A stretch of DNA of 64,000 nucleotides from Octopus vulgaris. Taxonomy: Eukaryota. The stretch covers positions 219,914,001 through 219,978,000 of the forward strand of contig OX597814.1 of the NCBI GenBank assembly GCA_951406725.2, in the 5' to 3' direction. This document shows positions 4,870 through 56,325 of the stretch, piece by piece (the stretch's first letter is position 1; each line of letters begins with the position of its first letter). A program made the position numbers and the translations under genes. The notes below the pieces were generated by a model. That model made no database searches. It saw only the letters and a program-made list of their open reading frames with translations, and had not been told where the DNA came from.

Positions 4870-4910
4870 ACTTAACCGGTTTCACTCTTTGGTAAAAGAT
4901 TGTCAAAAGT
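4870..4910 (-). ncRNA. Minimal type I hammerhead with U3-A8 covariation
   Basis: ACUU-UUGACAA-[UCUUUUACCAAAGAGU]-GAAA-CCGG-UU-AAGU; palindromic ACCGGU stem III. Confidence 0.65.
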
Positions 4911-6703
4911 TACATTTAAGGAAACATTGAATAATATGGGTTCAAAAAAGTTTTTTACATAATTGTCACATTGAATATTATGCATTCAAAAAAGTTTTTT
5001 ACATAATTGTCACATTGGATATTATGAATTCAAAAATGTTTTTTTGTACATAATTGTCACATTACATGTATAAATATAGTGTTTGGTAACAGAGAAGTTC
5101 AATAGTGTGATGAGAATATTTGGGAAAATTTGGCAGAAAAGGATAAAACAAATATATTATTGGGAATTGGTTGCGTTAATTATTGGTTGTCGCAAATTGT
5201 CACATTACATGTATATATATACAATCTTTGGTATATATATACGGCCTTTTGACAGCAAAAATTAAAATGGATTTTTTATACATCTCAGAATATTTTAAGT
5301 TCAAGGCGAGAATATGTTTTTACTGACCTGTCGGTATTAGCAGAAAGGCTGAACTGAGAGAAAAGGAGAAGTAGCCAATGTGGTGTATACTTCCCCTTTA
5401 TGCATGAATGATTTTGGGGTTATCAGGAGGTTAGTATGCGGGTGTGAATAGATGTGTCGTGCCTGCTGGTCAGATAGCATCTGTTTGTCACACACATATA
5501 TATATACACACACACACACACACACACACACACACACACACACACACACACACACACACAACACACACACACACACATAGTATACAAACACACACCACAT
5601 ACAAACAACACACACACACACACAGAACACACACACCCACACACAACGCACCCACATATATCACATATACACACAGCACACAAATATAACATGTATCTAT
5701 ATATAACATACACAGATATATAACACACACACACAACACACACACACACACACACACACAACACACGCACACATACATACATAATATAAATATCACACAA
5801 ATACACCTAGCATATATATACACATACAATACACACATACAGCATGTAAATAATACACATACACAATATATGCATGCAATATACATACGCAATACATACA
5901 TATAATATATATATATATAGACAATGCATATACATATATACATATATACATATATACATATAAATAGTGTTTACATACACATACATAGATGTACCACATA
6001 TACACACAATACACATACATACAATGCATACACATACACGTACGCATACATATAATATATATATATACACACACACACATAACACACATACACAATGCAT
6101 ACATATATATATATAAAAATTCACCCCCCTACACACAAATTACAAACCTATAGCGTACACACTCAAATATATCTCTACATGCCGCACACACACACAAACA
6201 AAGTACTAACATATACACACATACCATGCATATACACACACAACACACACACACACACACACACACATATATATATATATATATATATATATATATATAT
6301 AAAACAAATACACATGTAAATACATACACACGTACACAATGCTCACACACACACACACACACACACACACCCCCGCACGCAGTGCACACACACACACACA
6401 CGCGCGCGCACACACACATATACACACACACGCACACAGTGCACACACACACACACACATATATATATATATACACCCGCGCACACACACACACACACAC
6501 ATACACACACACACACAACACTCACACACATACATCACCTACATATATATAATGCATGCGTGTGCATGCCACGTATGTGTGCGGTCAATACCCGCTAGTG
6601 TGTCCTATGCGTGCCGATGCGCGCATGTGCCCGCCCGCACGATATGCTGTGAGCGTGCGCGCGTCCCTGTGTGCTTGCTCTGGATGTGTTTCCAGGGGGT
6701 ATG

Positions 6704-7779
6704 TTAGAGTATGTTTAGTTGTGGTCTGTATTTTTGAATAAGATTACTTTTCCTTATTTATTCGTGTTTGGTCTGTGGTGTTGTCCGAGCATTGGTATAG
6801 TGGGAAGACTAAGAATTTGGGGGACTTATTGTGTGCACAAAGGTCTAAGTGTCCACTTAGTGGTATCTGTCTTGTGGAGGGGTCCCTCAGTTGTTGTCGG
6901 TGAACTGTCATTCTTTCTCTGAGGGTAAGGCTCGTTTGCCCTATGTAGTCTTCGTGGCATCCTTCACACCTTATGACGTAGAGTAAATTTTTTGATGCGC
7001 ACGTGAAATTATTTTTTATGATGAATGTGTGTCCCGAGTGGAACTTGTACGACGATCCCTCAATGAGGTGGATGCAGGTCTTGCAGTTGGGGCGACCACA
7101 TTTTTTGATGGTGGGCGGTGGGTTTGTGTTGTGTAATTTTGCGTTGGTGAGGAGGTTTTTTAGGGATTTAGGTTGTCTCTTACTTTTTATTATTTTATGA
7201 GCTGCCAGTATTTTTTTCAGGCGTGGGTCTTGATTTAGTTGTGGAATGTTGTTGTATATAATAGTGTAAGCTTCTGCATTCCTTGGGTTGTGTGTTGAGA
7301 GATAATGGAGGCTATTTACTGTACTGTGGATGTGTTTGGGTTTTCGAAGGTCTTGAATGTTGATTGATTTGGCCCGTTCTATTCCGTTGTCTACTAGTGA
7401 TGCCGGGTAATGTCTTTCGAGAAGAATTGCCCTTAGTTCCCGGAGTCTTCTATTTCGTGTTGTGTCATTTGAGACAATAGTGCAGATTCTTCTCGCTAGG
7501 TTGAAGGGGATATTTGTCTTTGTGTGTTTTGGGTGATTGGAGGTGAATAGAAGGTATTGTTTAGAGTCAGTGGGTTTGTAATGGATGTCAGTTTCAATGT
7601 TGACGCCTTTTTTAATGATTAGGATGTCAAGAAAAGGGAGTTGGTCCTGACTATATTCCATTGTGAATTGAATGTTGTTATTTACACTGTTGATAAGGTT
7701 TTTGAAGTCTATAAGTTGGTCGAGTGTGTGGGACCATAGGATGAGGCAATCATCTAAGTAGCGTTTCCAGTTCTCCAAC
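6704..7779 (-). pseudogene. Penelope-like RT C-terminal half + Cys-rich linker + GIY-YIG endonuclease (Neptune-like)
   Basis: [70 protein letters not shown]; 1-nt insertion near 6745 before YLIQKYRPQLN. Confidence 0.92.
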
Positions 7780-7999
7780 ATATATGTATATATGTATATA
7801 TATATATATATATATATATATATATATATATATATATATATATGTATATATATATATATATATATATATATATATATATATATATATATATATATATATA
7901 TATATATATATATATATATATATATATATATATATATATATATATATATATATATATATATATATATATATATATATATATATATATAGATATATATAT

Positions 8000-54500: not shown

Positions 54501-54889
54501 CCAAGATGCGTTTCTGTGAGTGCCATGCATATAGCTTGATTGCATGTCACAAGATCTCTCAGGAATGAGATTTTCCTTATACAGTTTCTGCGCAGCAGCC
54601 CTCCTACGTTCAGTAGAAATATTTTTGTGGTGTGTGTGTTGGTGTCTGTGGTGGCCATCCTGCATCTGTTGGTGGTGGCCATATGGGGTGGTAGTTCCAG
54701 CTTTGTGTTTGTAGCCAGGTCAGCCAGCTGCTGGACAATTTTTTGTGCCATGCACAAAAAAGATTGCTGTCCAGCTGCTGCCCTTCTCACATCTGGGTGA
54801 AGCTGGCCATCTGTTGGGTTACTGTGCACCACATCTGCATATCGTCTTTCAGGAGTGGTCATATCGTCTTTCAGGAGTGGTCTTTCAGG
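51587..54889 (-). mobile_element. 5'-truncated CR1-group LINE (ORF1 end, EN, RT in frameshifted ORFs)
   Basis: LTETHL, MGDFNFP, SGVPQGTVLGP, YADD; 3' tail ggtgccccagcatggccgcag; microsatellite on both flanks. Confidence 0.92.
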
Positions 54890-55902
54890 TATATATATAT
54901 GTATATATATATATGTGTGTGTGTGTGTGTGTGTGTGTATGTATGTATATGTGTGTGTGTGTGTGTGTGTGTGTGTGTGTGTGTGTGTGTGTGTGTATGT
55001 ATGTATGTATGTATATGTATATATATATATATATATATATGTGTGTGTGTATGTATGTATATGTATATATATATATATATATGTGTGTGTGTGTGTGTGT
55101 ATGTATATATGTGTATATGCATATATATGTGTGTGTGTGTGTATGTATATATGTGTATATGCATATATATGTGTATATGCATATATGTGTGTGTGTGTGT
55201 GTGTATGTATATATGTGTATATGCATATATATGTGTGTGTGTGTGTATGTATATATGTGTATATGCATATATATGTGTGTATGTATGTATGTATATATGT
55301 GTGTGTGTGTGTGTATGTATATATGTGTATATGTATATATATATATCTGTGTGTGTATGTATATATGTGTATATGTATATATATATATCTGTGTGTGTAT
55401 GTATGTATGTGTATATTTATATATATATATGTATATATATATATGTGTGTATGTATGTATATATATATGTGTATATATATATATGTGTGTATGTATGTAT
55501 ATATATATGTATATATATATGTGTATGTATGTATGTACGTATATATATATATGTGTATGTATATATATATATATATGTATGTATCTATGTATGTATGTAC
55601 GGTGACACAGTGAAACGTAGCCAGTAGAGCCAACAACAACATCAAAAATAACACACAAAATGTTGCGTAGTCAAAGTAAAATTTTTTTTAACAAAACATT
55701 CAATAATATGCATAATTAAATCTCAGAATGAGATTGAAACAGTAATCGCTCGATAATTTAAAGTATAGAAGCCATCTTATCATTCAATAATAGTTCTTTG
55801 GAAAGTTTTTTTCTTTCCTTAGTTCCTTTAAAAAAAACACATTTGACATTTAGCAACACAAAGTTCTTATATATATATATATATATATATATATATATAT
55901 AT

Positions 55903-56325
55903 AGCAAAATTTAGGAACGGCCATAATAGGCCATTCAACCCACTAGAAATAACAGCCAAAGCTTCAACCGCAAAACAATATTAATTCTGTAAACCAGGAG
56001 AAAATTTAAAAAAACATTTACCCTGTAATACTTTATACGATGCATCGTTTCGTCTATTCTTTAATGGTAAATCAACCTGATTAAATTAAATTAAATCAAG
56101 CTAATCTTCCATAGGGTGGTTTACAGAATTAATATTGTTTTGCGGTTGAAGCTTTGGCTGTTATTTCTAGTGGGTTGAATGGCCTATTATGGCCGTTCCT
56201 AAATTTTGCTGTTGAATTTATAAATGGTCTATGACTATTTACTTTTTTCCCACTAGGCCGCTGGTGGCAAAAGAATTCTGCGAAATTTTTTTGCCACCCT
56301 ATATTGATTAATTATATTGATTAAT
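55903..56325. repeat. Fold-back copy of the 13690 family with a partial hammerhead
   Basis: Arms ~55903-55996 / 56117-56210; palindrome ACGATGCATCGT at 56037-56048; CUGAGGA half missing. Confidence 0.85.

Follow-up and report, generated by a model that had tools for sequence, protein, structure and literature searches.

Palindromic helix III loops in hammerhead-like motifs of probable Penelope-like element origin within a 64-kb window of Octopus vulgaris DNA

Type I hammerhead ribozymes residing in the 3′ repeats (pseudo-long terminal repeats, pLTRs) of Penelope-like elements (PLEs) bear a helix III capped by a palindromic loop, and a tandem copy activates the motif as a dimer (Cervera and De la Pena 2014, PMC4209133). 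The same study derives the consensus CUGANGAH...GAAAN-Palind-NU-H from 56 motifs, and reports that a single minimal motif failed to cut and that dimers cut weakly; in another report, one of nine dimer constructs was active (bioRxiv 10.64898/2026.07.22.740005). The palindromic character was also catalogued across species (Perreault et al. 2011, PMC3088659, Fig. S8), and reviews restate the palindrome and dimer model (PMC6765202 and PMC6466107): the property and its dimer reading are already published, from 2011 to 2014. A similar arrangement is reported for the double hammerhead of avocado sunblotch viroid (ASBVd) and newt satellite 2 (Forster 1988), where two short helices III are fused via a palindromic loop. 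Here we describe hammerhead-like sites in a 64,000-nucleotide stretch of Octopus vulgaris DNA (‘the window’; contig OX597814.1, positions 219,914,001 to 219,978,000, forward strand), which are probably type I hammerheads of PLE 3′ repeats and of short non-autonomous units, their palindromes stemming from the double-hammerhead fold. Positions below follow the numbering of the window, and the family labels A to G are our own.

We found 11 hammerhead-like sites belonging to seven families, with the palindromes occupying helix III of type I hammerheads. As Rfam produced no hammerhead (there was no match at gathering score in the window), we used a descriptor search and tested for the type I core C3 U4 G5 A6 N7 G8 A9, G12 A13 A14, A15.1-U16.1 and H17. 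An earlier note on this DNA had listed seven palindromic motifs as hammerhead stem III, and this holds for every family listed: in descriptor scans of the window each of the seven lies directly 3′ of the GAA of a hammerhead-like core. The set does not begin at 4870, as the note had it, the first site being located at 1234. The sites are as follows:

1234 to 1320, minus strand: family A, inverted copy, helix III ACAUAUGU at 1248-1255
2121 to 2206, plus strand: family A type I hammerhead with 6-bp helix I, CUGAAGA and a 55-nt helix II region
4011 to 4048, minus strand: family B minimal hammerhead whose core, CUGUUAA, is decayed; ACGU (4017-4020) is its helix III
4505 to 4542, minus strand: family B minimal hammerhead, second tandem copy with the same core mismatches, ACGU at 4511-4514
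4870 to 4910, minus strand: family C hammerhead, U3-A8 core UUGACAA, helix III ACCGGU (4875-4880)
13918 to 14024, minus strand: family D type I hammerhead, intact, with 8-bp helix I, CUGAGGA and a 68-nt helix II region
14301 to 14351, minus strand: family E hammerhead whose core is intact; ACAGUUCUAGUCCUGU at 14308-14323 is its helix III, and the cut is predicted after 14307
18638 to 18688, plus strand: family E hammerhead, inverted duplicate, ACAGUUCUAGUCCUGU at 18666-18681
24428 to 24472, minus strand: family F hammerhead, core UUGACGA, helix III ACUAUAGU at 24435-24442, GUC site
48202 to 48266, minus strand: family G hammerhead; its core CUGAUGA is intact, the helix II region measures 30 nt, and helix III, AUCACAUGUGAU at 48209-48220, is perfect
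56028 to 56116, minus strand: second family D copy, 5′-truncated inside helix II, core lost

Three helices surround the core, open at helix I. The full consensus core combined with an N17 other than G is present at four of the 11 sites (13918, 14301, 18638 and 48202), and the remaining seven deviate by G17, by U3-G8, by U3-A8 with an offset, by two mismatches (twice) or by loss of half the core (twice); U3-A8, U3-G8 and G17 are likewise found among the published PLE motifs (PMC4209133). The family A copies lie in inverted arms that are 93% identical (1180-1553 and 1871-2267): an internal deletion took the 5′ strand of helix I and the core start from the 1234 copy, while the 2121 copy, with ACAUAUGU at 2192-2199 (plus strand) and a G at N17 (2200), is, judging by its sequence, probably poorly active. 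The two family B copies are arranged head-to-tail 494 bp apart, each with two core mismatches; they are counted as hammerheads because they match the minimal consensus in print, rather than by score. For this family the earlier note had given AACGUU as helix III. That motif is indeed palindromic, but its register was off: the true helix III is ACGU, the outer A being A14 and the outer U being N17. In family C two bases are unpaired ahead of GAA, and the hammerhead stands 42 nt ahead of a (TA)n tract. The family D copy at 13918 has helix III ACGGUGCAUCGU at 13927-13938 (minus strand), 10 of 12 positions of which are self-complementary, plus a wobble, and its cut is predicted between 13926 and 13925. 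The second D copy, 42 kb away, does contain the perfect palindrome previously noted at 56037 (ACGAUGCAUCGU, 56037-56048, minus strand), but it lacks the CUGANGA half of the core, as does the 1248 copy of family A, and has another helix I 3′ strand than the 13918 copy; an inverted piece (56117-56312) precedes it. Family E, with 12 of the 16 positions of ACAGUUCUAGUCCUGU self-complementary, sits in inverted duplicates that are 99.5% identical (14284-14492 and 18497-18705). In family F, U3 stands opposite G8, and an inverted partial copy (~24606-24660) ends within the core. The family G unit of ~445 bp (47962-48407) is flanked by (TA)n tracts. Only family B has a same-strand tandem partner: the A and E pairs are on opposite strands, and C, F and G are solo. 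At other AACGTT and ACCGGT sites in the window (e.g. 24479, 24519, 24635, 34284, 34761, 47809 and 61766) the scans gave no credible combination of core and helices, and all 16 metagenome matches to an 18-base family B pattern were in GC-rich contigs without hammerhead context.

The sites agree with the pLTR hammerheads of PMC4209133 in type I topology, consensus, dimer model and in having both U3-A8 and U3-G8 cores; as there, copies are mostly solo with some on opposite strands, and palindromes differ by family within one genome (CGCG versus GGCC loops in Aedes). What sets them mildly apart from the published rows is size. While, by our reading of Fig. S3 of that paper, palindromes are at most 10 nt long in its 56 rows and the A9-G12 spacer is about 23 nt or less, here the palindromes of D, E and G are 12-16 nt long and the spacers of A, D and G span 30-68 nt. 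Furthermore, unlike the published motifs as described there, D, E and G have a monomer helix III of 3-4 bp. ASBVd and newt satellite 2 differ from our families in host (a viroid or satellite) and in having a helix III of 1-2 bp, and the repeat-type hammerheads of Perreault et al. come from other hosts, with no selected inter-family code in the accessible part of that paper (PMC3088659). By title and abstract, and with subscription papers outside coverage, we found nothing in the literature on a pairing code or heterodimers, nor on octopus hammerheads. A 2017 work by Lunse, Weinberg and Breaker may already cover longer palindromes or mixed dimers.

Could the palindromes be chance? A GAA followed by a perfect palindrome is not in itself enriched in the window (26 cases of at least 6 nt versus 21.2 in shuffles; five of at least 8 nt versus 6.4). 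We then scanned blind to the palindrome with strict settings: exact core, helix I of at least 5 bp, helix II of at least 3 bp and a spacer of up to 90 nt. This strict scan is partly post hoc, since the spacer was enlarged to 90 nt after family A had been seen. It returned five matches from four families, all five with a helix III that is at least 75% self-complementary; the same scan on 20 shuffles gave nine matches (0.45 per window), none of them palindromic. With one mismatch allowed there were eight matches, four of them non-palindromic, a number near the shuffle mean of 2.6, and the looser scan also returned one mis-registered read of the core-less 1248 copy. With two mismatches there were 63, and it is here that family B first appears, at ranks 34-35 and within the noise. 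We treated as background two exact-core matches that have no real helix II and are non-palindromic (33992-34052 and 44660-44738), as well as a weak, non-palindromic U3-A8 match (12868-12919). Since any stem is self-complementary, the loop is the informative part: its central four bases, for which intrastrand pairing is impossible, are self-complementary in all seven families. By our own arithmetic the probability of this arising by chance in the four blind-scan families is ~2e-5 (0.264 per pair).

We next consider the energetics of the monomer and of the double hammerhead. The monomer helix III is absent in B, has 1 bp in C, 2 bp in A and F, and 3-4 bp in D, E and G. The corresponding hairpins are computed at -1.4 to +6.0 kcal/mol, or are impossible, versus -1.7 to -17.5 kcal/mol for the homoduplexes and -12.8 to -17.5 kcal/mol for the long palindromes of 12-16 nt. 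The active monomer lies above the minimum by 1.4 kcal/mol in D, 1.2 in E, 2.8 in G, 5.3 in F, 5.8 in A and 11.5 in C. For the six families with a monomer fold, the double hammerhead is computed to be 10-20 kcal/mol more stable than two active monomers; for D and G it coincides exactly with the two-strand minimum, and for E and A it comes near to it (in A, G17 pairs with C3). Helix III looks too weak for a monomer in B and C, likely so in A and F, and not so in D, E and G. As modelled, dimers look favoured in all families and required only in the short-helix ones.

Variation at the level of a family was examined for D, one of the seven families, using contigs of public runs. The element in question is:

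13692 to 14179, minus strand: family D unit, ~490 bp, between (TA)n tracts, solo in the window

The unit is present in high copy in three organisms and is strongly self-paired; its fold z-score is alike on both strands (-5.5 and -5.3) and so is uninformative on strand. Contigs of four runs from the three organisms, placed on 13700-14170, amounted to 5127, 14830, 1581 and 172 records. Among the 40 listed variant rows, only 13932 and 13933 vary in helix III, and they do so jointly, converting the loop from UGCA to UAUA. The double change makes up 14, 2.6, 4.0 and 36.5% of depth in the four runs, the depths at the two positions being equal in three of them and within 0.5% in the fourth. It preserves the palindrome, and the bases concerned can pair only between two copies: family D thus provides natural double-change evidence at such loop bases, although the change is one event, and the linkage of the two substitutions could also stem from a template switch. 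Elsewhere, variants at 14005 and 13946 fit a replacement of A-U by G-C in helix II, the 13921 variant is a U-G wobble in helix I, and N7 is the sole core position that varies in these rows. A head-to-tail junction (14170 to 13700) was found in two of the four runs at depths of 15.5 and 18, versus 1e5-1e6 along the unit: head-to-tail D units of ~490 bp exist but look rare, and junction contigs at the edges of the analysed stretch may be under-counted. A single contig joins the D 3′ end to a copy starting inside the helix III palindrome (13931 / 13700), 5 nt before the predicted cut; the start point may reflect microhomology. Sequence comparison places one further D relative in the window:

18932 to 19302, minus strand: D-related truncated inverted copy without a hammerhead

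About 15 nt of this copy (18932-18946) resemble, by eye, the end-to-start junction of the D unit in the manner of a tail-like read-through; automatic alignment failed to place them.

The link to PLEs comes from one coding remnant and from the surroundings of the sites. Translation, Pfam and Atlas clusters identify the former:

6744 to 7778, minus strand: 5′-truncated Penelope-like open reading frame (ORF), with a 344-residue frame at 6747-7778

The remnant retains the YLDD end of the reverse transcriptase, the thumb, a CX4CX2C linker and a GIY-YIG endonuclease; Pfam detects GIY-YIG with an E-value of 0.0008, below the Pfam cut-off, and the nearest Atlas clusters combine HTH_animal with GIY-YIG, at 0.94. 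On the same strand, 1.83 kb downstream, follows family C, and the two would form one element. A (TA)n tract follows within 241 nt downstream at all 11 sites, versus 20% of random places within 250 nt, and truncated inverted copies accompany families A, D, E and F. Of the traits of PLE insertion, namely 5′ truncation, an inverted partial copy, a tail and a (TA)n target (PMC8557442), the inverted copies are thus seen in four families and (TA)n at every site. Long CA/TA-rich low-complexity stretches (14494-17600, 17947-18405, 5480-6560 and 54890-55600) adjoin E, C and the second D copy and may be microsatellite-rich 3′ regions of elements. Two fold-backs (8007-8095 and 33080-33171) share a 45-48 nt segment that is 85% identical, and they adjoin (TA)n; they are possibly inversion junctions of another PLE copy.

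How would the palindromes have come about? In the scheme that we favour, the short units would be non-autonomous and mobilised by PLEs. Two copies would exchange strands, so that helix I is built from one strand of each, while their short helices III would merge into one long duplex holding both active sites; it is this known double-hammerhead fold that would account for helix III and its loop being palindromic. The source elements would be partial tandems with two repeats, so that the second copy is at hand in cis, and they would thereby be excised from read-through RNA. Most copies in the window would then be solo, inverted or decayed relics of the mechanism, and family specificity would arise from joint divergence of helix I and helix III. 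Under this scheme the families with a short helix III (B and C, and likely also A and F) probably cannot do without the dimer, which in D, E and G would do no more than boost cutting. The dimer reading of the earlier note, which the note itself gave in part as known, is in this way partly borne out, by the loop centres, the stability of the double fold and the D double change; what finds no support, given the monomer helices of D, E and G, is a dimer that every family would need.

Several observations weigh against this interpretation. An Rfam E-value search of the window had no hammerhead among the best 150 of 228 matches, and neither did three local searches around D/E, G and F; the miRNA-type (microRNA) matches that Rfam gave in the window are microsatellites and fold-backs. 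A tblastn search of the window found no second PLE ORF remnant and none for the other six families, whose link to PLEs thus comes from their surroundings only. In B, C and F a structure other than the double hammerhead is the two-strand minimum, and in the full 488-nt D unit the ribozyme pairs of the monomer have a low probability (0.06-0.40). As to the D variation, it was read from 40 of 61 variant rows in contigs whose variants are unphased; the other 12 core positions have zero changes listed where 0.94 are expected, which is weak evidence taken alone; and 13942 varies in 32% of the depth of one run (X3) with its partner unchanged, yielding an A-C at the base of helix II.

The earlier note went further than the double-hammerhead reading: cutting would be confined to tandem transcripts, and the palindrome could be a family-specific pairing code. 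In the strong form of this idea, all families would cut only as tandem dimers, and the palindrome would have been selected as a code against cross-family pairing; we consider this strong form quite improbable. Mixed transcripts could occur, since E followed by D (13918-14351) and C followed by B (4505-4910), both on the minus strand, place different families 280-330 nt apart on one strand, so that read-through RNA would carry mixed pairs. Heterodimers are computed to be 5.2-10.8 kcal/mol below the homodimer-mean stability in all 21 family pairs, but such a penalty is expected of any diverged set. When we compared orthogonality with that of 1000 length-matched sets of random palindromes, using two null models, one of four measures was borderline (3.9% of random sets, uncorrected), but the other three gave 14%, 39% and 96%: in three of four measures cross-family pairing is no weaker than between random palindromes. 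At least two helix III junction pairs can form in 36 of 42 cross pairs, whereas helix I reaches 4 bp in only three of the 42 (D/E 0 bp, B/C 2-3 bp) and thus separates the families by itself. As helix I is intermolecular in the double hammerhead, the partner is already fixed by it. The two D copies can pair with each other through helix III (-18.1 kcal/mol), but their helices I are not the same. The exclusive need for a tandem fares no better. D, E and G can fold as monomers, with helices of 3-4 bp at 1.2-2.8 kcal/mol above the minimum; same-family copies are inverted or solo except in B, which has a broken core; and efficient cutting as monomers is reported for most type I hammerheads of invertebrates (PMC7229834, PMC7761336). 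In addition, one PLE hammerhead cut only when protein was present, and insertion in vitro did not require it to cut (PMC11167929).

Selection for RNA dimers could also be absent altogether, if template switching during reverse transcription or replication perfects the hairpin as a DNA by-product. These elements readily make inversions, the 13932/13933 double change would equally result if one substitution were copied across by a template switch, and the wobble of the 13927 copy is replaced in the 56037 copy by a pair that makes the DNA palindrome perfect. Yet this wobble is a G-U pair that works on the ribozyme strand only and that the 13927 copy keeps, its position not being among the 40 of 61 variant rows listed; other hairpins of these elements, the helix II loops among them, have a centre that is not palindromic; and a minimal PLE hammerhead proved dimer-dependent in vitro (PMC4209133). 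We judge the by-product explanation highly improbable. The palindromes may alternatively serve in trans, dimerising two element RNAs, perhaps on a dimeric PLE protein, with cutting being secondary. The 12-16 nt palindromes (-12.8 to -17.5 kcal/mol) surpass the need of a monomer, the D tandem junctions are scarce (depth 15.5-18 versus 1e5-1e6), and the PLE protein is predicted to be dimeric, with a hammerhead that cuts only with protein and whose cutting insertion can do without (PMC11167929). Pairing in cis suffices, though, because selection acts on the source elements, which are partial tandems, and we grant the trans signal hardly any probability, the lowest of all the readings. A variant of the idea draws on analogy with the retroviral dimer-initiation signal: D, G, E and A might be a sub-type with long palindromes and long helix II, missed by Rfam and standard descriptors, in which helix III is a trans genome-dimerisation signal pairing same-family RNAs on a dimeric PLE protein. 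Its chances are slim. Were it true, two templates would be provided for the partial-tandem and inverted PLE insertions, and the palindrome would be a genuine partner-choice element.

Returning to the double-hammerhead reading, family D most resembles the metazoan non-LTR (long terminal repeat) retrozymes (PMC7229834; bioRxiv 10.64898/2026.07.22.740005): both are short, non-coding, highly self-paired units with one type I hammerhead, and mobilisation by PLEs has been proposed for retrozymes; the head-to-tail junctions typical of retrozymes appear for D at low depth, in two of four runs. They differ in size and setting: the D unit measures ~490 nt, versus RNAs of 170-400 nt and repeats of 150-450 bp for the retrozymes, is solo in the window and is known from DNA and contigs. 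The in vivo role of PLE hammerheads is called unknown in the literature (PMC8557442, PMC7761336), and family D, a high-copy intact predicted ribozyme, is suited to comparing cleavage by monomer, cis-dimer and trans-dimer. Finally, one published core search used a spacer of 7-17 nt (PMC8557442); the 55-68 nt between the core halves seen here exceed this range and evade Rfam, and therefore PLE hammerhead counts may be too low.

The window is animal DNA rich in microsatellites, which dominated a general repeat search of it, and it has several frames of long interspersed nuclear element (LINE) type for reverse transcriptase and endonuclease. LINE-type elements with AP (apurinic/apyrimidinic) endonuclease and reverse transcriptase frames lie at 9090-12601, 20061-24096, 36477-37910, 45343-47412 and 49724-55654, some as inverted pairs, and a weak Myb/SANT-like match falls in the N-terminal part of the 10442-12601 frame. 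An LTR retrotransposon fragment with an integrase zinc-binding domain is found at 43245-43844. A dispersed repeat family resembling miniature inverted-repeat transposable elements (MITEs), with long inverted arms (34269-34781, 61761-61981 and 30159-30976), supplies several of the non-hammerhead AACGTT matches. Five copies of a repeat similar to short interspersed nuclear elements (SINEs) are split by a central microsatellite (13211-13617, 26123-26918, 39591-40223, 57463-57883 and 60829-61280), and a GC-rich tandem array, whose unit measures 62/63 bp and whose higher-order period is 125 bp, starts at 63378 and extends past the window end at 64000.

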